DNA of 64,000 bases, taken from assembly GCA_035502455.1 (NCBI GenBank), contig DATJUI010000014.1:6365-70364 (forward strand), in the 5' to 3' direction. Source of the DNA: Thermoplasmata archaeon. Lineage in GTDB: Archaea; Thermoplasmatota; Thermoplasmata; Lutacidiplasmatales; UBA184. Positions within the stretch are counted from its first letter, which is position 1. Each line of letters begins with the position of its first letter. Positions 7,758 to 56,213 of the stretch are shown here, one piece after another. The notes under the pieces were generated by a model. It saw only the letters and a list, made by a program, of their open reading frames with translations, was not told the origin of the DNA and searched no databases. The position numbers and the translations under genes were made by a program.

Positions 7758-8396
7758 CTACCGCGCGCTCATCTGCGACGCGTTCTCGATCAGCTTCTGG
7801 AAGCGGAACGGTTTCGGGATCCCCTTCCAGTCCTCGTTGCCGATCCGGCTGCCGCCCTCGGAGCTCACCCGGACCGTTCCGTAGCCGAGCAGGCGCTGCC
7901 CGAACGACTGGTGGACGTCGATCCCCCGGACCTGCGTCACGGGGATCTCGTCGAAGTCCTTGCCCAGGATCCCCTTCTGGACGATCACCCGGCGGTTCGT
8001 GACCGCGTAGACCGTCGAGATCCAGCGCAGGTACCGCACGAACGTCCGGATGACGCCGAGCAGGAAGAGGACCGCGAAGAACAGCGTCGTCCAGAGCGCC
8101 CACGTCGAACTCCCGACGTGGACCCATCCGGCGAGCGTGCCGAGCGCGTTCGTCCACGCGGCGAGCCCGGGCCAGCCGAAGTACGCGGCCGCGCTGAGGT
8201 ACGTCAGCACCCCCGTGATCAGCAGCCAGACGATCGGACCCGGGAAGTAGAACAGCTTGGTCGCGCGGGTCTCCTCGAGCAGGAACTCCTGGTCGCCGAG
8301 GAACGTCGCTTTCAGCAGTCGGGGCATCGGCCGAGGAGCGGCCGAGACGGTCGTCGCCGCCGGGGCGACGGGCGGGGGGGGCGTGGGGGCCGCCAT
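7758..8396 (-). CDS. Membrane protein with bacterial PH (bPH_2) domain
   Basis: Two TM segments then YAVTNRRVIVQKGIL...QRLLGYGTVRVSS; TATA-like tttatc about 28 nt upstream of ATG 8396. Confidence 0.8.
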   Translation of the reverse strand: MAAPTPPPPVAPAATTVSAAPRPMPRLLKATFLGDQEFLLEETRATKLFYFPGPIVWLLITGVLTYLSAAAYFGWPGLAAWTNALGTLAGWVHVGSSTWALWTTLFFAVLFLLGVIRTFVRYLRWISTVYAVTNRRVIVQKGILGKDFDEIPVTQVRGIDVHQSFGQRLLGYGTVRVSSEGGSRIGNEDWKGIPKPFRFQKLIENASQMSAR

Positions 8397-18379: not shown

Positions 18380-19006
18380 TCACAGGACGAGCGCGCGCCG
18401 GACGCAGTCGTCGACGATCTGGTCGACGTCCAGCACCGTCTCTTCGCGCTCGATCTGCACGAGGTTCGAGCGGGTCGCGGGCCGATCCGGGACCGCCTGG
18501 CAGCACAGGCCCGGTCGCGTCGAGATCTCGTAGGTGCCGATCGACTTCGCGACCGCCTCGATCTCCTGCTTGTCGAACCCGATCAGGGGCCGGACGATCG
18601 GCAGGCCCACCGCGGCGGTCGCGCTCCGCATGTTGGGGAGCGTCTGCGACGCGACCTGGCCGAGCGCCTCGCCCGTGGCGAGGAACGTCGCGCCCTCCCG
18701 TTCGGCGATCCGCTGGGCGGAGCGCCACATGAACCGCCGGCACAGGATGCAGCCGACGTGCCGGTCGGTGTTGCGCATGAGCGTGATCTGCGTCGGGCCG
18801 TGGGGCAGCACGTAGAGCGGGATCGCTTGGTGGTAGCGGGTCCGAAGCAGCTGCAGGTGGTCGACGACCTTCGTCAGCGGAGAGTCGTCGGTGAACGGCC
18901 GGTTGTCCATGTGCACGGCCAGCACCTCGTGCCCCTGGCGCAGCAGGTAGTGGATCGCGACGGGGGAGTCGATCCCGCCGCTCATCAGCATCACGCCCCG
19001 CGCCAT
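18380..19006 (-). CDS. thiI: ThiI-like PP-loop sulfurtransferase, catalytic domain only
   Basis: MSGGIDSPVA PP-loop, CILCRR, TGEALGQVASQTLPN, RPLIGFDKQEI, GLCC; no THUMP domain. Confidence 0.8.
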   Translation of the reverse strand: MARGVMLMSGGIDSPVAIHYLLRQGHEVLAVHMDNRPFTDDSPLTKVVDHLQLLRTRYHQAIPLYVLPHGPTQITLMRNTDRHVGCILCRRFMWRSAQRIAEREGATFLATGEALGQVASQTLPNMRSATAAVGLPIVRPLIGFDKQEIEAVAKSIGTYEISTRPGLCCQAVPDRPATRSNLVQIEREETVLDVDQIVDDCVRRALVL

Positions 19007-25115: not shown

Positions 25116-25472
25116 ATGGCGAAGAAGGTCAAGCGGAAGCTCGAGGAGGCGCAGGAGCCCGCCTTCGAGTTCCCGATCTTCGACGACGGAGCGTTCGTCA
25201 AGAAGGAGTTCGAACTGACCTGGGGGCTCACCCTCGCCGGGATCATCGCGGTCGTCTTCGGGTTCCTCGACTGGGCGCTCGCCACTGCCCACGTGCCCTG
25301 GTGGGGCGAGTTCGGCCTCGCGATCCTGGGGGCCGCCCTCACCCCGTTCCTGATCGGGCGCGTGAGGTCCGGGTCGTCGGCCTACACGAAGGGCGACTGG
25401 TTCGGGCTGATCTTCCTCGTCTTCTTCGGGACGATCGCGCTCTGGTTGCTGCTGATCAATCTCGCACCGTAG
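25116..25472 (+). CDS. Hypothetical membrane protein (3 TM)
   Basis: Charged N-terminus FEFPIFDDGAFVKKEF followed by hydrophobic helices; 3 nt after lipA stop. Confidence 0.7.
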   Translation: MAKKVKRKLEEAQEPAFEFPIFDDGAFVKKEFELTWGLTLAGIIAVVFGFLDWALATAHVPWWGEFGLAILGAALTPFLIGRVRSGSSAYTKGDWFGLIFLVFFGTIALWLLLINLAP

Positions 25473-26874
25473 CGGCCGCGTCGAGCCACGGCAGCCGCTT
25501 CCCCAGGAGGCCCGTGAGCGCCTCCTCGAGCGACGGGGTCTCCGTCGCCTCCCCGAGCGGGGCGACCCCGATCGCCGACGGGTCGGCCGGCGTGAGGTCG
25601 CGTCCGAGCGACAGCCGGGGCAACAACGCCCGCACGACCGTCTCCGCGTCCCGGTCGCCCCGCCGGGACTCGACGGCCAGGTGGCCGTCCGGGCCGACGT
25701 ACGGGCCCTGGAGGACCGGGGCGTCCGCCGCGCCCCACTTCGCGAGGAAGTGGCCGACCCGGTCGAGCCCGGCCGGCGGGCCGCCCTGGATCCGCACGGC
25801 GGGTCGCTCCCGATGCGCCAGCTCGACCACCACCGTGACCCGCTCCGGGTCCGCGGCGCTCGCGGAGGCGAGGAGCGCGTAGTCGGACCGGCCGAGCTCC
25901 TCCGCGATCGCATGCTCGGCCTTGCGGATCTGCGGGTAGAGCGTGTCGTCGACCCGGTCGGGCCGGGGCAGCGTGAGCACCGTCACGTGGGTCCCCCGGG
26001 CGTGGACCGCCCGGAGGGCGTCGTCCCGGGAGAGCCGGGGGCGGGGCCGTACCTCGAACCACGCCTCGGTCGGGCCGTCGAGGTACGCGCCCGCCGCGAG
26101 CACGAACGTGGCGAGGTTCCGGCGCGAGAGCGCGCTCGCCACGTTGCGGTTCGGATCGACCGGGTCCGCGAGCACCAGGGCGACGTCGGCCGGGAGCCGG
26201 GGGGGCTCGTGGCCGGGCGCGGCCAGACGGACCGGGAGTCGCCAGCCCCGGGCCGCGCGCAGCCACCCGCGCAGTCCGCCGAACTCGAGGACGAGCAGCT
26301 CCACGAGGTACCCCGAGAACCCCTCCGTGCGGGCCTCGGACCCGTAGACGCCGAGCGCGCGGAGGTACTGCTTCGCGAGTCGCACCTCGGCGACGAGGGC
26401 CGGGGTCTCCCGGGCGATCAGGTACTCCTGGTGGAACGGGGTCCGGTCGACCGGCGACAGCGGATGCGACGGGTCGGAGATGGCGAAACCGGGGACGGCG
26501 TCGACGTTGAACCCCGCGAACCGGCCGCGGAGGTACGGGTGCTCCGCGTAGCGGGTCTCGGGCGACTCGAGGACCGCGCGCCCGAGGGCGAGCCCCTCCT
26601 CGCGCAGCCGGTCCCGGCCGAGGTCGGGGGGGAACAGGAGGAACAGGTCGATGTCGAGCCGGTCGCTGAGGAACGTCCCCCGGGCGGCGCTGCCGGCCAC
26701 CAGGGCGCGGACGAGCGGGCTCGACCGCGCCTTCGCCGCGGCGCCGACGCGCTCCACGAGCTCCGTCCGCACGCGGGCGACCCGCTCCAGGAACTCCGCC
26801 GTCGGCGCGAGCCGGCGCGCGACCGTCGCCTCGACACGCGCGGCCTGCGCGTCGCGCTCCGCCCCCTCCGGCAT
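25456..26874 (-). CDS. cca: Archaeal class I CCA-adding enzyme
   Basis: GSAARGTFL..DIDLF, YAEHPY, VDRTPFH, GFSGYLVELL, DPVDPNRNVASAL. Confidence 0.95.
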   Translation of the reverse strand: MPEGAERDAQAARVEATVARRLAPTAEFLERVARVRTELVERVGAAAKARSSPLVRALVAGSAARGTFLSDRLDIDLFLLFPPDLGRDRLREEGLALGRAVLESPETRYAEHPYLRGRFAGFNVDAVPGFAISDPSHPLSPVDRTPFHQEYLIARETPALVAEVRLAKQYLRALGVYGSEARTEGFSGYLVELLVLEFGGLRGWLRAARGWRLPVRLAAPGHEPPRLPADVALVLADPVDPNRNVASALSRRNLATFVLAAGAYLDGPTEAWFEVRPRPRLSRDDALRAVHARGTHVTVLTLPRPDRVDDTLYPQIRKAEHAIAEELGRSDYALLASASAADPERVTVVVELAHRERPAVRIQGGPPAGLDRVGHFLAKWGAADAPVLQGPYVGPDGHLAVESRRGDRDAETVVRALLPRLSLGRDLTPADPSAIGVAPLGEATETPSLEEALTGLLGKRLPWLDAAATVRD

Positions 26875-44390: not shown

Positions 44391-44731
44391 GGGGGTTGCG
44401 GCTGCTGGCATACGGGGCAGTAGACCGCGGACCTCGCTATGAGGGTTCGGCAGCGCACGCAGAACTTCCCGTTCGGCGGGGGGGCCATCGGCCCGGTCGC
44501 CCCGGGGACCGGAGGCGGAGCGGGCGCGGCGTACGACCCCGGCGCCGCCACCGGCACGTACAGCGGGGGCGGCGCGGGGGACCCGGGTCGCGCGCCTGCG
44601 ACCCCGGGGGGGCCGGGCGGGGGAGGTACGACGGCGGGGGATGCCTCCCCCTGCGGCAGCGTGTAGCCACACTTCGTGCAGAACAGCGCCCCGTCGGGCG
44701 CGAGCTCGCCGCAGTGGAGGCAGACCGGCAC
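44387..44731 (-). CDS. Double zinc-ribbon protein with Pro-rich linker
   Basis: CLHCG...FCTKCG and FCVRC...YCPVCQ. Confidence 0.8.
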   Translation of the reverse strand: MPVCLHCGELAPDGALFCTKCGYTLPQGEASPAVVPPPPGPPGVAGARPGSPAPPPLYVPVAAPGSYAAPAPPPVPGATGPMAPPPNGKFCVRCRTLIARSAVYCPVCQQPQPP

Positions 44732-45599: not shown

Positions 45600-47327
45600 A
45601 TGGCGCTGCCGCCGGAGGTAACCCGTCGGGCGCGTCGGCTCGCGCTCGCCAACGCGGTCGCCCACGGAGGGGCGCCGCGCGCCGGTCCGATCGTGGCCCG
45701 CCTGCTCGCGACCGACGCGACCCTCCGGCCCCGGGCCGACGCGGTCCGGGCCCTGGTGGCCGAGGTCGTGGCCGACATCGCGCAGCGTCCTACGGCCGCG
45801 ATCGCCGAGGAGCTCGCGGCGCTCGGCGGCGCGGAGCCGGAGCGCGCGGCGCCCTCGACGGCGACGACGGGCGAGTTCCCGGACCTCCCCGATGCCGTGT
45901 CGGGCCACGTGGTCCTCCGGCTCGCCCCGTTCCCGAGCGGAGCGCTCCACATCGGGCACGCCCGCATGATGTTCGTCAACCAACTGTACCGAGATCGCTA
46001 CCAGGGCAAGATGCTCCTCGTCTTCGACGACACGGTCGGATCGGAGGAGAAGCGCGTCGAGGGCGAGTTCTACGGGCTGATCGAGGAGGACCTCGCCCTT
46101 GCGGGGATCCGCCCCGACGCGACCCACTACCGGTCGGACCGCATCGCGCTGTACTACCCCTGGGCGCGTCGCGTGATCGAAAAGGGGGGCGCGTACGTCT
46201 GCACCTGCGCGGCGGATCTGCTCCGCGCCAACCGCGCGGCCGGCGTCGCCTGTCCCGAGCGCGCCCAGAGCGTCGGCGAGACGCTGGACAGGTTCGCGCG
46301 GATGCTCGACGGAGGCTACCGGCCGGGCGAGGCGGTGCTCCGCCTGCGCACCGACCTCCACGACCCCGATCCCGCCTTCCGGGACCGGGTCCTGTTCCGG
46401 CTCAGCGACGTCGAGCACCCCCGGGTGGGGCGTCGGTTCCGGGTCTGGCCGCTCCTCGAGTTCTCGTGGGCCGTCGACGACGTCGAGCTCGGCATCACCC
46501 ACGTCCTGCGCGGAAAGGACCTGGTCATCGAGGACCGGATGCAGCAGTTCGTCTGGGACCTCCTCGGTCTCACCGGTCCCAAGTTCCTCCACTGGGGCAT
46601 CCTGCGGGTCCGAGAGGCGAAGGTCTCGAAGAGCAAGTCGTACCGCGAGGTGAAGAACGGGACCTACGACGGATGGGCGGACCCGAGGACCTGGTCGCTG
46701 CGCTCGCTCGATCGGCGCGGCATCTCGATGGAGGCCCTGCGCGCCTTCACGCTGTCGTTCGGAATGTCCCTCTCGGACATCGAGGTGCCGGCGGAGACCC
46801 TGTACGCCGAGAACCGAAAGCGCATCGACGCGACGACGCCACGTCGTTCGTTCGTCCCCGACCCGGTTGAGGTGACGGTCGCCGACTTCCCGGCGGAGCT
46901 CGCGCAGGTGACGCTCGCCAACCACCCCGACGTTCCGGCGCTCGGGATGCGGCAGGTCGCGGGAGGACCGGCCTTCTACCTGCCCCGCAAGGACGTCGCG
47001 GCGCACCTGGGGGAGGAGGTCCGCCTCAAGGACCTCGTCAACGTGCGCCTGCCCGATCGGCTCCCGCCGGACGAGGTCGCCGTCGCGGCGTTCACCACCC
47101 GGGAGAACCGGCGCCTTCCGCGGATCCAGTGGGTCGGGACGCCGGGGGCCGTCGCGGTCGACGTCCTCGGGATGGAGGGGGAGCATACGGCCGGCTGGGG
47201 CGAGCGGACGCTCGCGGCGGCCCCGCCCCGCGCGATCTACCAGTTCGAGCGGTTCGGCTTCGTTCGCGTCGACGACGGCCCGGGCCCCGGGCCGGGCCCG
47301 CTGCGGGTCGTCTTCGGGCATCCGTGA
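45600..47327 (+). CDS. gltX: Glutamate--tRNA ligase (archaeal)
   Basis: RLAPFPSGALHIGH, FDDT, WPLLEFSWAVDD, THVLRGKD, VSKSK, QFERFGF. Confidence 0.97.
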   Translation: MALPPEVTRRARRLALANAVAHGGAPRAGPIVARLLATDATLRPRADAVRALVAEVVADIAQRPTAAIAEELAALGGAEPERAAPSTATTGEFPDLPDAVSGHVVLRLAPFPSGALHIGHARMMFVNQLYRDRYQGKMLLVFDDTVGSEEKRVEGEFYGLIEEDLALAGIRPDATHYRSDRIALYYPWARRVIEKGGAYVCTCAADLLRANRAAGVACPERAQSVGETLDRFARMLDGGYRPGEAVLRLRTDLHDPDPAFRDRVLFRLSDVEHPRVGRRFRVWPLLEFSWAVDDVELGITHVLRGKDLVIEDRMQQFVWDLLGLTGPKFLHWGILRVREAKVSKSKSYREVKNGTYDGWADPRTWSLRSLDRRGISMEALRAFTLSFGMSLSDIEVPAETLYAENRKRIDATTPRRSFVPDPVEVTVADFPAELAQVTLANHPDVPALGMRQVAGGPAFYLPRKDVAAHLGEEVRLKDLVNVRLPDRLPPDEVAVAAFTTRENRRLPRIQWVGTPGAVAVDVLGMEGEHTAGWGERTLAAAPPRAIYQFERFGFVRVDDGPGPGPGPLRVVFGHP

Positions 47328-50016: not shown

Positions 50017-50988
50017 GTGAGCGAACCGGCGGCGCACGCGACGCACGGCACGGTCCCCGGGACGAGCCCCGCGGCTGCGCCCCGCTACCCCCGGCCGGCC
50101 CTCGGCCGGCTCGGGCTCTCCGCCGGCAAGAAGACGCGGCTCAAGCGGCTGCTCTACGACCACGGCCCCGGCGGGGGGACCCTCCTCGTCCTGCCGATCG
50201 ACCAGGGACTCGAGCACGGGCCGGTCGACTTCTTCGACAACCCGGGGGCGCTCGACCCGCAGTACCAGTACGAGCTCGCACGGGACGGGCGGTTCAGCGC
50301 GATCGCGCTCCACATCGGCCTCGCGGAGAAGTACTACGCCGAGTTCGCGGGCGACGTCCCCCTCGTGCTGAAGCTCAACGGGAAGACCTCGATCCCGGGG
50401 GACGCCCAGGCGTTCAGCCCTCTCACGGGAACCGTCGAGGACGCGGTCCGCCTGGGCGCCGATGCGGTCGGCTACACGCTCTACGTCGGCTCGCCGGCGC
50501 AGGACCGGGACTTCCTCCAGTTCCTCACCGTCCGGCGCGAGGCCGAGCGGCTCGGCATGCCCGTGATCGTGTGGGCGTACCCCCGGGGCGAGGCGGTCGG
50601 GAAGAAGGGCGGGAAGGAGAGCCTGTACGCGATCGACTACGCCGCGCGGGTGGCGCTCGAGCTCGGCGCCGACGTGGTGAAGGTCAACTACCCGGTCGCC
50701 TCGGAGAAGGACCGGGAGAGCCCGGCCCCGTACCCGACCCTCGGGCTCGACCCCGACCGCGCGTTCCGCAAGGTCGTGGAGAGCGCGGGGCGCGCGCTCG
50801 TCCTCGTCTCGGGCGGCGAGAAGGTCGGCGACGCCGAGCTGCTGCGCAAGGTGCGCTCCTCGATGGACGCGGGGGCGACGGGCATCATCTTCGGCCGGAA
50901 CCTCTGGCAGCGCCCCCGGGACGAGGCCCTGCGGCTGACCCGCGAGCTCCATGCCGTCTTCCGGGAGTACGCGCAACCGCCCGCCTGA
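50017..50988 (+). CDS. Class I fructose-bisphosphate aldolase (DhnA family)
   Basis: [52 protein letters not shown]. Confidence 0.92.
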
Positions 50989-51523
50989 GCGGCCGATCCC
51001 TCTCTTCGTGCGGGTCGTCGGCGACGACCATCCGAAGGCCTGCACGGGGCGACGTCTCCTGCATCGGGGGCTCGCCCGCGCGGCGGGCGAACCGCGACCG
51101 GGCGCGGGCCCCGTCGTCCTCGATCCCTACGCCGCGGAGCCGCTCTCGCCGGCCGACCGCGGCCGGGTCGTCCGGACCGGTCTGCTCGTCATCGACTGCT
51201 CGTGGAACCGGCTCTCGGGCCGGGGTCGGTTCCCCGACGGGGCGGCCCGCGCCGCGGGCGTCCACCGGCGGCTCCCGATCCTCGTCGCCGCCAACCCGCA
51301 GCACTTCGGTCGGGTCGCGGAGCTGAACACGGTCGAGGCGCTCGCGGCCGCGCTCTCGGTCCTCGGTCGCGACGGGGAGGCCGGCCGTCTCCTCGAGGGG
51401 TTCGCGGGCGGGGCGAACTTCCTCGCGATCAATCGGGAGCGGCTCGTGCGGTACGCGGCGACGCGCGACGGCGAACAGATCCGGGCGGCGGAGCGGGCGC
51501 TGTTCGCGGCGGGGCCCGATTAG
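50951..51523 (+). CDS. tsr3: rRNA aminocarboxypropyltransferase Tsr3 (DUF367); start uncertain
   Basis: [28 protein letters not shown]...[11 protein letters not shown]. Confidence 0.9.
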
Positions 51524-52407
51524 CCGGTCGGGAAGGTCCGACCGTCCGTCGCGAGGTGCTCGACGGTCAGGTCGAGCACCGAGCGGACCGGCCGGTCGAG
51601 CGGCAGTCGCGCGACGATCACGCCACCGTACCGCTCGAAGACCCGGGTGGTGTGGAGGGTGAGGCAGCGATCGCGGTACAGCGGACGGCCGGTGAGGTCC
51701 GGATCGTGACCGCGCAGCACGATCGCGAGCCCGGTGTCGGCGAGGAACCGGTCGAGCTCCGCCTCCGTCCACGGCGGCACCACGTCGCGGTGCGCGCGCG
51801 ACTCGGTGCACTCGGCCCAGACGAGGTCGGCGAGCTCGGCCTCCGAACGGGCGACGTATCGGGTCGACCAGTCGGGCGGCTGGGGGCCGCGCGGGAACCC
51901 GCCGTGCGCGAGGTAGGCGCCCGAGTCGGTCGCGACGGCGAGCGGCCCCCGCTCCAGCAGGCCGAGGAGCCGGTCGTACCGCTCCCGGGATCCCCACCGC
52001 TCGAGCACCTCGCGTCGCAGGCTCTCGGGCTCGACCGGCATCCGCCGGGTCGTCTCGTGATTCCCCTGGACGAGGAAGACTCGGTCGGGTCGGTCCGCGG
52101 CGAGCGACAGCAGGAACACCGCGTTCACGAGCGACCCCGCGGGGCAGTCGCGCGGCGTGCGGTCGACGTAGTCGCCGAGCCCGATCAGGTAGCGGTCGGC
52201 GCCCTCCCACTTCGCCACGACGGCGGCCACCGAGGGCCAGTCCCCGTGCGAGTCGCCGAAGACGATCGCCTCGCGCCCGGCGGGGATCCGCTCGATCGGG
52301 GCGCGCCGCGGGACCCGCGCCTCGAGGACGTCCAGCAGGGGGTCGACGCGGTCGAACGGGATCTCGAGGACCTGCGGCGGCGACCGCGGCAGCGCCCCGT
52401 CCTCCAT
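51520..52407 (-). CDS. Calcineurin-like metallophosphoesterase (PPP-type)
   Basis: GDSHG, GDYVDR, GNHE, HGG, RGH. Confidence 0.9.
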   Translation of the reverse strand: MEDGALPRSPPQVLEIPFDRVDPLLDVLEARVPRRAPIERIPAGREAIVFGDSHGDWPSVAAVVAKWEGADRYLIGLGDYVDRTPRDCPAGSLVNAVFLLSLAADRPDRVFLVQGNHETTRRMPVEPESLRREVLERWGSRERYDRLLGLLERGPLAVATDSGAYLAHGGFPRGPQPPDWSTRYVARSEAELADLVWAECTESRAHRDVVPPWTEAELDRFLADTGLAIVLRGHDPDLTGRPLYRDRCLTLHTTRVFERYGGVIVARLPLDRPVRSVLDLTVEHLATDGRTFPTG

Positions 52408-52440
52408 CGCCGTGCGGAACGCTCAGGGGGCGGGGCGAAG

Positions 52441-52588
52441 TGCGGGGGGCCGGAGTTCCCGGCGGCCGGCCGCGCGGGCCGGCACGCCCTTTGAACCGGC
52501 GCATGCCCTGGGCAACAGGGTCCTAAGCCCTGCCTCGGTGGCCCCGTCGACGGCGTCGGACGGTTTGGCCGAGCTGGAGCACCCCCGC
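52441..52588 (-). tRNA. tRNA-Leu(UAG) with two non-canonical introns (21/22: 52538-52564; 59/60: 52455-52489)
   Basis: Removing both introns gives an 86-nt cloverleaf: GCGGGGG/CCCCCGC acceptor, CAGGG-CTTAGGA-CCCTG, TGCC-CAG-GGCA variable arm, GCCGG-TTCAAAT-CCGGC, discriminator A; BHB at both introns. Confidence 0.92.
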
Positions 52589-52615
52589 ACGGTGAGATCG
52601 GCTCGGGAGGATAAG

Positions 52616-52722
52616 TAGCCCCGGCAGGAGTTCCGGCCGGCGGGGAGCCGCTCCCCCGCGGCGTTCGAACCTGCGTCGCGAGATCCAGAGTCTCGCATGA
52701 TTGGCCACTACACCACGGGGCT
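52616..52722 (-). tRNA. tRNA-Gln(CUG) with a non-canonical T-loop intron (59/60: 52630-52663)
   Basis: Removing the 34-nt intron gives a 73-nt cloverleaf: AGCCCCG/CGGGGCT (A1-U72), CGAGA-CTCTGGA-TCTCG, GCAGG-TTCGAAT-CCTGC; strict BHB. Confidence 0.94.
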
Positions 52723-52747
52723 ACGGAGAGCGCCACCGACGCGGGGC

Positions 52748-52754
52748 GGATAAA
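52748..52754 (-). promoter_or_regulatory. Putative TATA box for the tRNA-Gln/tRNA-Leu operon
   Basis: TTTATCC on the minus strand, 26-32 nt upstream of tRNA-Gln position 1. Confidence 0.55.
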
Positions 52755-52889
52755 CGTTGCCCGACGACGGCGAGCGCCGCACCGAACGTGGGGGTCCCGA
52801 CGCGTTCCGCGCGCGCTCGCGCCGCGCGGCGACCACACGGCACAAATAGCCGAGGACCGTCCCCCGCCGGTCCATGGCTGGAGGGGGGC

Positions 52890-54704
52890 ATGGCGGACGG
52901 AGTACCGAGCGGGTCGGTCGACCGACGGAGCGAGCCCCCGGCCGACCCCGGAACCCCCCGGATCGGGGCGCGCGCGCCCGCCTCGCCCGCCGCTAGCACC
53001 GCCCGACGCTCCGCCCTGCGCGCCGCCGCGATCTACGCGGCGATCCCGCTCGTCGCGGGCGGGATGACGCTCGCGACGGTCGGGCTGTCGGGTTCGGGCA
53101 TCGCCTCGTACTTCCCGCTCGCCGGCGTCGACGTCTTCTACTCGTTCCTGCGGATGCTGGCGGCCTACGCGGCGTCGCTCGGCTTCGCGCTCGCGTACGG
53201 CTACTACGCCGCGACGCACCGGACCGGCGAGCGCGTGATGATCCCCGTCCTCGACATCCTGCAGTCGGTCCCGATCCTGGGCTTCTTCCCGATCGCGATC
53301 GTCTTCTTCGTCGACCTCACGCCCGGCAGCTGGATCGGCGCGAACCTCGCGTCGGTCTTCCTGATCTTCACCTCGATGGCGTGGAACATGGTCTTCGGCG
53401 TCTACGAGTCGCTGAAGACGCTCCCGTCCGACATGAAGGAGGCCGCGGAGACGTTCCACGTCCGCGGGATCCTGCTGTTCCGCCGGGTCCTCTATCCGGC
53501 CACGATCAACCGGCTCGTCTACAACTCGGTGCTCTCGTGGACCGGCGGCTGGTTCTTCCTCGTCGAGGCGGAGATCTTCACCACGAACGGGTCGAACGCC
53601 CTCGCCGGGATTGGTAGCTATCTCTCGTTCGCCGCGAGCGCCCAGAACGGCGACAAGTTCCTGGCCGGGATCCTCGTGCTCGTGATCGTCATCGCCCTGC
53701 TCGACTTTGCGGTGTGGCGGCCCCTCGGCCACTACGCGGAGCGGTTCCGGTTCGACCAGAGCCCCTCGGGCGAAGCGGAGTCGGTGGCGGCGCCGGACCC
53801 GCGCAGCCGGTTCCGGCGGGCGACCTCGTACGTGACCCAGGGCGTACGGGCGGGCGTGACGCGGATCACGACCCCGCTGGTGCAGTTCGCGGCGATCACG
53901 ATCCGCCCGGCCCGCAAGCCGAGCCCGACCCGGCGCACGATCCTGTACTACCTCGCGCTCGGCGTGATCCTGGTCGCCGTCTGGCTGATGGTGATCGCGA
54001 TCGCGGTCGCGGTCTTCCACGTCTACACCCAGCCGATCGTCGGCTCGGTCCGCCGGCAGATCCTGCAGCTGCCGCTCGCGATGGGCGCCTCCACGCTGCG
54101 GGTCGTCGCGGCGTACGCGGTCTGCCTCGGGATCTCGTTGCCGCTCGCCTACTGGATCGCGCGGCGGCCGCGTGCGGGGCGGGTAGGCCTCCCGATCGTG
54201 GAGGTGATCGCCTCGTTCCCCGCGACCGCGCTGTTCCCGGTGATCATCTTCGAACTGATCCCGGTCCTGACCCCGGAGGGGGCGGCGATCCTGATGCTGA
54301 TGACGGGGATGATCTGGTATCTCTTCTTCAACCTCCTCTCGGGGATGCGGGCGCTCCCGCCGGATCTGGAGGAGGCGTCGCGGTCGTTCGGACTCAAGGG
54401 TCGGAGGTTCTTCTGGCGGGTCGTCCTCCCGGGGATCTTTCCCGCGCTCATCACCGGGTCGATCACGGCGTTCGGGGGCGGCTGGAACACGCTGATCGTC
54501 GCGGAGTACCTCAACTCCGGCACGGGCCACTCGCTGAGCCTGCTCGGGATCGGCCAGGCGATCGACATCGGCTACGTCGAGCCGAACGGGATCCCGTTGA
54601 TGGTCGCGGCGCTGTTCACGCTGATCGCGACCGTCATCGCCATCAACGAACTCATATGGAAGCCGCTCTACCGACGGGCGGTCGAGCTGTACCGGTACGA
54701 CTGA
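52890..54704 (+). CDS. NitT/TauT-type ABC permease with two membrane domains
   Basis: PVLDILQSVPILGF, AWNMVFGVYES, PALITGSITAFGGGWN..IVAE. Confidence 0.9.
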   Translation: MADGVPSGSVDRRSEPPADPGTPRIGARAPASPAASTARRSALRAAAIYAAIPLVAGGMTLATVGLSGSGIASYFPLAGVDVFYSFLRMLAAYAASLGFALAYGYYAATHRTGERVMIPVLDILQSVPILGFFPIAIVFFVDLTPGSWIGANLASVFLIFTSMAWNMVFGVYESLKTLPSDMKEAAETFHVRGILLFRRVLYPATINRLVYNSVLSWTGGWFFLVEAEIFTTNGSNALAGIGSYLSFAASAQNGDKFLAGILVLVIVIALLDFAVWRPLGHYAERFRFDQSPSGEAESVAAPDPRSRFRRATSYVTQGVRAGVTRITTPLVQFAAITIRPARKPSPTRRTILYYLALGVILVAVWLMVIAIAVAVFHVYTQPIVGSVRRQILQLPLAMGASTLRVVAAYAVCLGISLPLAYWIARRPRAGRVGLPIVEVIASFPATALFPVIIFELIPVLTPEGAAILMLMTGMIWYLFFNLLSGMRALPPDLEEASRSFGLKGRRFFWRVVLPGIFPALITGSITAFGGGWNTLIVAEYLNSGTGHSLSLLGIGQAIDIGYVEPNGIPLMVAALFTLIATVIAINELIWKPLYRRAVELYRYD

Positions 54705-54734
54705 GCCCCTCCGGCGGCCCGACGGCGGCGGACG

Positions 54735-55553
54735 ATGGCGCTGATCCGGGTCGACCACGTCGAGAAGGGGTTCGCGACCCGGCACGGATCGATCACCATC
54801 ATGCAGGACATCTCGTTCGATGTCCGGGACTCCGACTTCGTCGCGATCGTCGGCCCGTCCGGCTGCGGGAAGTCGACGCTCCTGCGGCTCATCCAGGGGC
54901 TCGATCGACCGTCGGCGGGGGAGATCTACTTCAAGGACCAGCCGGTCCGCGGCACCTGCGGCCAGATGGCGATGGTCTTCCAGAGCTTCGCCCTCTTCCC
55001 GTGGCTCACGGTCTCCCAGAACGTCGCCTTCGGGCTGGAAGCGCTCGGGTGGGAGCCCGAACGGATCCACGCCCAGGTGGAGCGGTTCGTCTCGGTGACC
55101 GGGCTCGACGGGTTCCAGGAGGCGTACCCCCGCGAGCTGTCCGGCGGGATGCGCCAGCGGGTCGGCCTCGCCCGGGCGCTCGCGGTCGAGCCGGCGGTCC
55201 TGCTCATGGACGAACCACTCAGCGCGCTCGATCCGCTCACCGCGGAGAGCCTGCGCGAGGAGATCCTCCAGCTGTGGCAGGACCCGAACCTGCCGCCGGA
55301 CGCCGTGGTCCTGGTCTCCCACAACATCGAGGAGGCGATCCAGCTCGCCGACCGGGTGCTCGTGCTCTCCCGGCGCCCGGCCCACCTCCTCGCCGACGTC
55401 GCGGTCGACCTCCCGCGGCCCCGCGACCGCAAGTCCCAGGCCTTCTACGACCTCACGGACAAGGTCTACTCGCTGATCACCGAGGGGGCCCCGGCCCCGT
55501 CGGCAACGACCCCCGTCCCGCCGAACGGGACGCCGGGTACTACCACGGGATAA
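54735..55553 (+). CDS. NitT/TauT-type ABC ATP-binding protein
   Basis: GPSGCGKST, VFQSFALFPW, YPRELSGGMRQR, MDEP. Confidence 0.93.
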   Translation: MALIRVDHVEKGFATRHGSITIMQDISFDVRDSDFVAIVGPSGCGKSTLLRLIQGLDRPSAGEIYFKDQPVRGTCGQMAMVFQSFALFPWLTVSQNVAFGLEALGWEPERIHAQVERFVSVTGLDGFQEAYPRELSGGMRQRVGLARALAVEPAVLLMDEPLSALDPLTAESLREEILQLWQDPNLPPDAVVLVSHNIEEAIQLADRVLVLSRRPAHLLADVAVDLPRPRDRKSQAFYDLTDKVYSLITEGAPAPSATTPVPPNGTPGTTTG

Positions 55554-55607
55554 AGCCTTTCCAACAACCGTTATAGGAAGCATCCCGGTCGGTAGGGCGA
55601 GCGGCCC

Positions 55608-56213
55608 GTGCCGACCAGCTATCCGAAGTCGAGCCCCACCGAGATGCTGGGTCTCCTCGTGCTGTTGAACGGCCACAAGGGGTCGGAGGACGTCGCGCTC
55701 CTGGCCGACGATCTCGACCTCGAGATCGACGAGATCCTGCCGTCGCTCGACAACGCGGAGCTGCTCGGCCTCGTGAAGGTCCAGGACGGCCGCGCGACGT
55801 TCACGGAGCTCGGCAAGCGCTTCATCTCCGCCTCGATCCGCGACCGCAAGGAGATCCTGCGCGAGCAACTGAAGCGCACGACGCTGTTCAAGACCCTCCT
55901 GCGCGCGCTCGACAGCGCGCCGGACCACTACCTCAACGACGAGCAGCTCGCCTCGATCGTCGCGTTCATCCCGGGTCCGACCGACGAGGCCGTCACGACG
56001 ATCATCAACTGGGGGCGGTACGCGGAGCTGTTCCGCTACGACCCCGAGGAGCACCGGCTCGTGGCGGTGCGACGCGCCGCGGGCTCGCGCGGATCGGGCG
56101 GCGGCGCCGCCCGTCCCCCGCCCCCGGGGGCGCCGTCCCAGCCCGCGAAGGCGGCCGCGAGCCGGACCGCGCCGGCGCCTCCGACCGACCCGCCCGCCAC
56201 CGCGTCGGCGTGA
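55608..56213 (+). CDS. Stand-alone AAA-associated domain protein
   Basis: LADDLDLEIDEILP...AELLG, TIINWGRYAELFRYD, normally the C-terminal domain of NitT/TauT ATPases. Confidence 0.8.
   Translation: MPTSYPKSSPTEMLGLLVLLNGHKGSEDVALLADDLDLEIDEILPSLDNAELLGLVKVQDGRATFTELGKRFISASIRDRKEILREQLKRTTLFKTLLRALDSAPDHYLNDEQLASIVAFIPGPTDEAVTTIINWGRYAELFRYDPEEHRLVAVRRAAGSRGSGGGAARPPPPGAPSQPAKAAASRTAPAPPTDPPATASA

Follow-up and report, generated by a model that had tools for sequence, protein, structure and literature searches.

Results

A tRNA-Gln(CUG) gene interrupted in its T-loop

The window analysed here is a 64,000-nucleotide (nt) stretch of contig DATJUI010000014.1 (assembly GCA_035502455.1, Thermoplasmata archaeon), in which the minus strand at 52616..52722 carries a 107-nt tRNA-Gln(CUG) gene with a putative 34-nt bulge-helix-bulge (BHB) intron in the T-loop, as judged from the sequence, the spliced cloverleaf and conservation. 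Read from 52722 to 52616, the gene is AGCCCCGTGGTGTAGTGGCCAATCATGCGAGACTCTGGATCTCGCGACGCAGGTTCGAA + CGCCGCGGGGGAGCGGCTCCCCGCCGGCCGGAAC + TCCTGCCGGGGCTA, i.e., a 59-nt 5' exon with positions 1-59 (52664..52722), which holds the anticodon CTG at 52686-52688 and ends in GGTTCGAA, the 34-nt insert (52630..52663, read from 52663 to 52630), and a 14-nt 3' exon with positions 60-73 (52616..52629) that does not encode CCA. The insert separates T-loop nucleotides 59 and 60. After its removal, the 73-mer is called by ARAGORN as tRNA-Gln(ctg) with 7/7 acceptor-stem, 5/5 anticodon-stem and 5/5 T-stem pairs, and it has the CUG anticodon in a 7-nt loop, U33, the short variable region of a class I tRNA, the T-loop UUCGAAU, the A1-U72 pair and discriminator A73. 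The predicted exon-exon junction joins GGUUCGAA to UCCUGCCGGGGCUA(CCA), its 3' side starting with UCCUGC. The A1-U72 pair, to which an earlier model-made note on this DNA (the original prediction) had drawn attention, is present and unchanged in all relatives, and neither the pair nor A73 varies in a set of 23 distinct sequences covering several phyla. These are reported identity elements for GatDE and GluRS and fit an archaeal tRNA-Gln, which is mischarged with Glu by a non-discriminating GluRS and then amidated by GatDE.

The unspliced gene does have the appearance, foreseen in the original prediction, of a pseudo-tRNA with a degenerate 3' end. ARAGORN forces a 76-nt model onto 52649-52724 with a wrong 3' half and mismatched T and acceptor stems, its intron mode (-i), limited to anticodon-loop introns, does not rescue the gene, and the Rfam tRNA model in permissive mode gives 22.4 bits, below the gathering score of 29 bits. 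At gathering thresholds, Rfam reports only the two intron-less tRNAs of the window; the matches to microRNA and small RNA families in permissive mode were regarded as noise. A generic scan of the window for tRNAs with a split T-loop returned four real tRNAs and two further matches, at 18512-18656 and 8069-8190, which lie inside coding genes and were treated as chance.

A strict bulge-helix-bulge motif

The elements of the splicing motif named in the original prediction were all located, on the minus strand, which it had left unstated. The exon helix h is the T-stem, with GCAGG (49-53, 52670-52674) paired to CCTGC (52624-52628), the central 4-bp helix H pairs U54, U55, C56 and G57 (TTCG, 52666-52669) with CGGA of the intron (52632-52635), and the intron helix h' of GCCG (52659-52662) and CGGC (52636-52639) closes an inner G+C hairpin (52636..52662). 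The 5' bulge is A58 A59 ^ C(i1) (52663..52665), with the 5' splice site after A59, and the 3' bulge is A C ^ U60 (52629..52631), with the 3' splice site before U60. The motif has the two 3-nt bulges of a strict BHB, one on each strand with 4 bp between them, and the flanking helices h and h'. The unconstrained minimum free energy (MFE) fold of the 107 nt is exactly this hBHBh' structure, with H stacked directly on the T-stem.

In the canonical archaeal precursor, H includes the first two anticodon bases, extending over 32-35, and cleavage takes place after 37, the sixth base of the loop (PMC4090602). In the T-loop intron, H spans 54-57 and the cut falls after 59, likewise the sixth loop base. 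Because T-arm positions 54-60 stand in for anticodon-arm positions 32-38, the 59/60 intron is the exact geometric counterpart of the 37/38 intron, shifted to the other arm that has a 5-bp stem and a 7-nt loop.

Frozen exons and a drifting insert in one Thermoplasmata lineage

We scanned one genome per archaeal and bacterial species with a split-gene pattern (anticodon, GTTCRAA, a gap of 16-46 nt, TC, four free bases, CGGGRCTA), which matched none of 100 shuffled versions of the window. The scan returned at least 120 loci, and the counts given below for genomes refer to the matches listed. A homologous split tRNA-Gln is present in 119/120 of them, and 83 of these 119 real matches carry a Thermoplasmata or Thermoplasmatota label. 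Nearly the same exons as in the window are found at 78 loci with a G+C content of 62-74%, including Candidatus Lutacidiplasma silvani and UBA184; 77 are labelled Thermoplasmata or Thermoplasmatota and one (L096) Methanobacteriota. The window itself has 72% G+C. As the 10 kb around the gene match the loci of Thermoplasmata metagenome-assembled genomes (MAGs) collinearly at 72-81% identity and with the same gene order (the best flank reaching about 81% among the 239 loci listed), the window can be assigned to a high-GC soil and peat lineage of Thermoplasmata to which Ca. Lutacidiplasma silvani and UBA184 (Lutacidiplasmatales) also belong. A haloarchaeal origin, an idea raised by the high G+C content and the intron of Haloferax tRNA-Gln, was rejected, as the Haloferax intron lies at 37/38 of the UUG isoacceptor and the flanks match Thermoplasmata MAGs.

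For the clade alignment, the window was combined with 75 distinct loci from species-representative genomes into 76 sequences without gaps. Only 7/73 exon columns vary, all of them in the 5' exon (7/59), while the 3' exon is unchanged; position 9 (A/G) is the sole exon column that varies in more than 10% of the sequences, and two sequences have a compensated change of A30-U42 to G-C. The interior of the intron is 40-60% variable and keeps no internal sequence, whereas its ends keep their pairing. H pairs 4/4 in 76/76 sequences, its intron side showing almost only exchanges of A and G at the bases facing U54 and U55, besides one C-to-U change facing G57. RNAalifold, given the 76 sequences and no hint, predicts the T-stem together with the 4 bp of H and a 3-nt bulge. 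A58, A59 and U60 are unchanged in the clade, and the first intron base (C/T/A/G) and the last one vary, which places the exon-intron borders at the sites expected from the BHB rule.

The metagenomes were scanned with the 5' exon only, ending exactly at the splice site, a pattern that is not able to favour intron-bearing tRNA-Gln genes. At least 119 contigs matched, 116 of which extend far enough 3' of the 5' exon to be informative. Among the matches listed, a 34-nt insert followed by TCCTGCCGGGGCTA is found in 116/116 informative contigs, with 93 distinct intron sequences next to one single exon sequence and a pairable 4-nt H strand in each of them. The length of 34 nt is also kept at 77/78 of the same-exon genome loci listed, the remaining one having 33 nt, and among these matches the 59/60 intron is fixed throughout the Lutacidiplasma/UBA184 lineage. 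The length of the tRNA-Gln intron is constant yet its interior has diverged, and the introns of the neighbouring tRNA-Leu, described below, change length in the same genomes.

An intron-less Gln(CUG) gene, named in the original prediction as a finding that would speak against it, has not come to light, as there is no other tRNA-Gln within the window and none of the 116 informative contigs listed has an intron-less version. A gene made redundant by such a copy would not be expected to hold its exons frozen across the divergence seen here.

Occurrence in other archaeal phyla

Inserts of 16-46 nt at 59/60 of tRNA-Gln(CUG) also occur outside Thermoplasmata. According to the MAG labels of the matches listed, they are present in Hadarchaeota (10), Woesearchaeota (9), Micrarchaeota including Anstonellales (4), Aenigmatarchaeota (3), Methanosarcinales (3) and Hodarchaeaceae (2), with one each in Thorarchaeota, Thermoproteota, Nanoarchaeia and an "uncultured archaeon"; the scan pattern is specific to Gln(CUG), the count covers this isoacceptor, and the distribution may reflect ancestry or repeated gain. 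H is intact with 4/4 pairs at 115/120 of the genome loci listed. The contiguous h' is more variable, with at least 4 bp in 55/121 sequences of the listed relatives and 0-1 bp in 27/121, and several of the shortest helices resume past a 1-nt bulge. Compensatory double changes in h' are seen in the clade alignment and among the relatives at large, e.g., GCC/GGC replaced by GUC/GAC, GG/CC or GAG/CUC.

The four T-stem positions flanking the insert that the scan pattern left unconstrained are fully complementary at 119/120 of the listed loci, for which the chance expectation is about 2%. In a set of 23 distinct spliced sequences drawn from several phyla, pairing of the split T-stem is complete (100%), with compensatory changes in 4/5 of its pairs; its covariation score is 0.458 in comparison with 0.115 for shuffles, the former being a value that 0/500 shuffles reach and to which no slid register comes close. 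ARAGORN recognises 104 of the 120 listed genome loci as full-length Gln(ctg) after removal of the insert and none correctly before.

At twelve loci of Hadarchaeota and Hodarchaeaceae (L006, L010, L022, L039, L043, L063, L065, L076, L090, L100, L102 and L120), the D-arm GGTCAATCCTG lies about 15 nt farther upstream of the anticodon than expected, and ARAGORN models an anticodon-loop intron at four of them. This suggests that the tRNA-Gln(CUG) of these groups has a second insert near 32/33 besides the one at 59/60.

An adjacent tRNA-Leu(UAG) gene with two introns

Comparison of the downstream flanks drew attention to the conserved sequence GCGGGGGTGCTCC, starting 27 nt past the tRNA-Gln gene, through which a tRNA-Leu(UAG) gene with two non-canonical introns was newly found. 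It covers 148 nt of the minus strand (52441..52588, read from 52588 to 52441) and is not called by either ARAGORN or Rfam. One intron of 27 nt (52538..52564) interrupts the D-loop between A21 and C22, and another of 35 nt (52455..52489) interrupts the T-loop, again at 59/60. ARAGORN finds nothing in the unspliced and singly spliced forms and recognises the gene only once both inserts are removed, the resulting 86-mer being a perfect class II tRNA-Leu(tag). The predicted junctions join GGCCAA to CGAGG and GGUUCAAA to UCCGGC.

The gene is present at all 77 listed clade loci with enough downstream DNA, and its mature sequence is nearly unchanged. At two of them (L030 and L061), exactly the D-loop intron is missing (121 versus 148 nt) while the T-loop intron is kept, and this natural absence confirms the borders of the intron to the base. 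Elsewhere at the listed clade loci, the D-loop intron measures 24, 27, 30, 33 or 35 nt and the T-loop intron 32, 33, 34, 35 or 38 nt, the differences being mostly steps of three. The D-loop intron forms a strict BHB by an alternative pairing, in which GAG of the 3' strand of the D-stem pairs with a second CUC in the D-loop and is stacked on GGCC/GGCC. The intron strand of its H is only GGCC, GGCT or GGTC in the relatives, so that the sole exchanges are between G-C and G-U pairs, and the bulge bases are free to vary. In the T-loop intron, H is UUCA/GGGA, and the base opposite A57 is G in 75/77 sequences. Because of this conserved A57·G juxtaposition in the central helix, the motif of the T-loop intron is classified from its sequence as near-strict, not strict.

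Upstream of the tRNA-Gln gene, a BRE-like GCAACG (BRE, transcription factor B recognition element) and a TATA-like TTTAT form a putative archaeal promoter at 52750..52760 on the minus strand, occupying -38 to -28 relative to the 5' end of the mature tRNA-Gln. TTTAT, at -32 to -28, is the sole A+T-rich island upstream of the gene, and the consensus GGCAACGTTTATCAACGG is found at the same distance at 79 clade loci. The 27-nt spacer between the two tRNA genes (52589..52615, minus strand) has no BRE- or TATA-like motif, and therefore tRNA-Gln and tRNA-Leu(UAG) probably form one transcription unit with a dicistronic precursor.

Discussion

The proposed maturation pathway and rival explanations

The spliced cloverleaf, the MFE fold, the RNAalifold prediction and the comparative data agree with the reading put forward in the original prediction, and we consider it highly probable that the locus is a genuine, functional and spliced tRNA-Gln(CUG) gene with a T-loop intron at 59/60. 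The tRNA-Gln and the adjacent tRNA-Leu(UAG) would probably be transcribed together from the conserved BRE/TATA element. EndA would then cut after the second base of each bulge, and an RtcB-type ligase would join the exons, restoring the T-loop UUCGAAU, and probably circularise the intron, linking its base 34 to base 1 (CCGGAAC to CGCCGCG), with CCA added after splicing. As long as the intron is present, U54-G57 would be sequestered in the central helix and the elbow of D-loop and T-loop could not form; since these bases are paired, splicing probably comes before T-loop modification and the steps that depend on the elbow. For Cluster II Euryarchaeota, to which Thermoplasmatales belong, alpha'2 is the sole type of EndA reported; it needs a strict BHB (PMC5829648, PMC7714728), and the strict motifs of the tRNA-Gln intron and of the tRNA-Leu D-loop intron fit this enzyme.

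Several points weigh against this reading. The steps of transcription, cleavage and ligation are deduced from the pathway known in archaea, an alpha'2-type EndA of the host is assumed from the literature on relatives, and neither endA nor rtcB was found among the approximately 45 open reading frames (ORFs) of the window that were scanned for genes. The searches for an intron-less tRNA-Gln(CUG) covered the window and the metagenome contigs, and a divergent copy may formally exist in another part of the genome. The MFE of the precursor has only a modest z-score of -1.84 in comparison with shuffled sequences, as expected at such a high G+C content. Moreover, the exon helices never vary within the clade and are uninformative on structure by themselves, so that the structural support rests on the intron side and on the other phyla.

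The appearance of the unspliced gene could also be that of a decaying pseudo-tRNA with an intact 5' two-thirds and a degenerate 3' part, as the mismatched ARAGORN model and the Rfam score below the gathering threshold would lead one to believe. However, a perfect 3' exon follows exactly 34 nt farther on, the exons are nearly unchanged in 76 sequences in which the flanking DNA is only 72-81% identical, and the 116 listed metagenome contigs hold no intron-less copy. Decay would not freeze the exons while the insert alone drifts under a pairing constraint, and we find this explanation hardly credible. Retention of the insert, giving an unusual tRNA or a tRNA-like RNA with a 34-nt T-loop hairpin, gains some plausibility from the strikingly constant length of the insert in the window and at the listed loci and contigs, and from the excision itself being deduced. 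Against it, the conserved part corresponds exactly to the geometry recognised by EndA, with no internal sequence kept, the pairing of U54-G57 would block the universal contact of T-loop and D-loop, and inserts of 16-46 nt occupy this site in other phyla, as would not be expected of a specific structural appendage. Retention is thus very unlikely.

The 3' halves of tRNA genes are frequent integration sites (PMC3218864), and the insert might for this reason be thought to be the scar or fragment of a mobile element, a target duplication left by an integrase, or an assembly artefact that folds by chance. The same architecture in about 78 independent genome assemblies and in 116 metagenome contigs among the matches listed, the lack of any direct repeat of exon sequence, and the small size of an insert of only 34 nt, the ends of which are constrained to pair with the T-loop, make the probability of such an origin practically negligible. 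Conversely, one could go beyond the spliced-gene reading and regard the 59/60 intron as ancient and selectively maintained, having been passed down, or favoured time and again, in Thermoplasmatota, Hadarchaeota, DPANN and Asgard archaea. Its length in the Lutacidiplasma-related lineage would then be held at 34 nt by a function of the circular intron after excision or of obligatory splicing before folding. Possible functions would be the gating of tRNA-Gln maturation or the shielding of the conserved 3' half of the Gln-Leu pair from integrating elements. We regard this extended scenario as unlikely and put it forward as a speculation.

Relation to known tRNA introns

Non-canonical BHB introns of tRNAs, including those at 59/60, are already established, and the locus is a further example and not a new mechanism. 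Position 59/60 is listed among the known archaeal intron positions (PMC4090602), and BHB junctions at this position are also found in permuted tRNAs of Thermofilum pendens and Cyanidioschyzon merolae (PMC3218864). The tRNA-Gln intron resembles the known 59/60 class in its motif, its T-loop position and its presumed processing by EndA and RtcB, and likewise has no coding or guide function. In contrast to the permuted and split genes, the tRNA-Gln gene of the window is co-linear, and while most of the known non-canonical cases come from Crenarchaeota/Thermoproteales and Thaumarchaeota, with an (alpha-beta)2 EndA that accepts relaxed motifs, the window is from Thermoplasmata and the motif is strict.

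A review states that euryarchaeal tRNA introns occur at the canonical position only (PMC4090602). This is overstated, given that the tRNAscan-SE 2.0 survey, in which non-canonical introns are detected with BHB covariance models (PMC8450103), counts 25 of 545 euryarchaeal introns as non-canonical (PMC8450103 Table S7). The same table gives 6 such introns in 3 genomes of Methanomassiliicoccales, 1 in 5 genomes of Thermoplasmatales and 0 in 30 genomes of Halobacteriales. The introns of Methanomassiliicoccales and Thermoplasmatales belong to the same phylum-level neighbourhood and feature class as the one described here, although they are given as counts, without the tRNAs and positions concerned. 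We found no paper on this intron for Thermoplasmata, Lutacidiplasmatales or Methanomassiliicoccales, though an earlier description is possible, as key tRNA-intron surveys lay outside the search. The lineage is the Terrestrial Miscellaneous Euryarchaeota Group, or Lutacidiplasmatales, whose genome paper makes no mention of tRNA introns (PMC9287336).

Two disrupted tRNA-Gln genes of other archaea are worth comparing. The tRNA-Gln(UUG) of Haloferax volcanii has a 31-nt intron at the canonical position 37/38 (PMC2584109, PMC7714728); it is, like the gene of the window, a euryarchaeal tRNA-Gln with an intron of about 30 nt and a near-perfect hBHBh', and the Haloferax enzyme is of the strict alpha2 type, but its intron lies at 37/38 of the UUG isoacceptor and that of the window at 59/60 of the CUG isoacceptor. 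The split tRNA-Gln(UUG) of Nanoarchaeum equitans, joined at 32/33 (PMC3218864), is also a BHB-processed disrupted tRNA-Gln, and its joint is at the position near which the Hadarchaeota loci seem to have their second insert. However, its halves are separate genes joined in trans, whereas the gene of the window is a single unbroken unit that lacks an insert at 32/33.

Implications for annotation and intron evolution

The current understanding of tRNA splicing is unchanged by these data, and their weight lies mainly in annotation and in comparative use. ARAGORN-based pipelines such as Prokka set a wrong end for the tRNA-Gln and miss the tRNA-Leu(UAG), so MAGs of an abundant soil and peat lineage can seem to be without decoders of CAG and CUA and score worse on quality measures based on tRNA counts. 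The lineage apparently tolerates at least three non-canonical introns in two adjacent genes, given a strict or nearly strict motif, despite the strict alpha'2 enzyme reported in its relatives, and it provides a clean lineage-wide example for the co-evolution of endonuclease and introns. About 170 distinct introns on one frozen exon background, together with the alleles that have lost the D-loop intron, could serve to study the turnover and loss of introns and the constraints on their indels.

Genomic surroundings of the tRNA genes

An archaeal-type GluRS (glutamate--tRNA ligase) is encoded on the plus strand at 45615-47327 (TIGR00463, 447 bits; NF003169, 519.5 bits; both NCBIfam equivalog cut-offs passed); its start at 44676 in the ORF list is almost certainly too far upstream. 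The original prediction had placed gltX 5 kb from the tRNA-Gln, and a GluRS gene does lie at a distance of about 5.3 kb. The suggestion of a functional link with the tRNA-Gln was nevertheless rejected and the proximity given no weight, as the gene is on the opposite strand, the arrangement is not operon-like and unrelated genes lie in between, namely those for an MFS transporter, a cation-efflux protein, a DeoC-family aldolase, a TSR3-like protein and a phosphoesterase. Neither gatD nor gatE was found among the window ORFs scanned. An archaeal class I CCA-adding enzyme is encoded on the minus strand at 25456-26874 (TIGR03671, 366 bits), consistent with genes for tRNA-Gln and tRNA-Leu(UAG) that lack the 3' CCA. 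The window also encodes eIF-1A and a protein of the cytochrome oxidase subunit I (COX1) family.

A 1289-amino-acid ORF on the minus strand (52185-56054) runs through both tRNA genes and through ABC-transporter genes of the opposite strand and was discarded as spurious, being typical of a genome with 72% G+C. The downstream neighbours of the tRNA pair are a gene for a TSR3/DUF367-like protein (50951-51523, plus strand), possibly a 16S rRNA aminocarboxypropyltransferase though scoring below the equivalog cut-offs, and a gene for a calcineurin-like phosphoesterase (51520-52407, minus strand), the start codon of which is located 34 nt past the end of the tRNA-Leu on the same strand.

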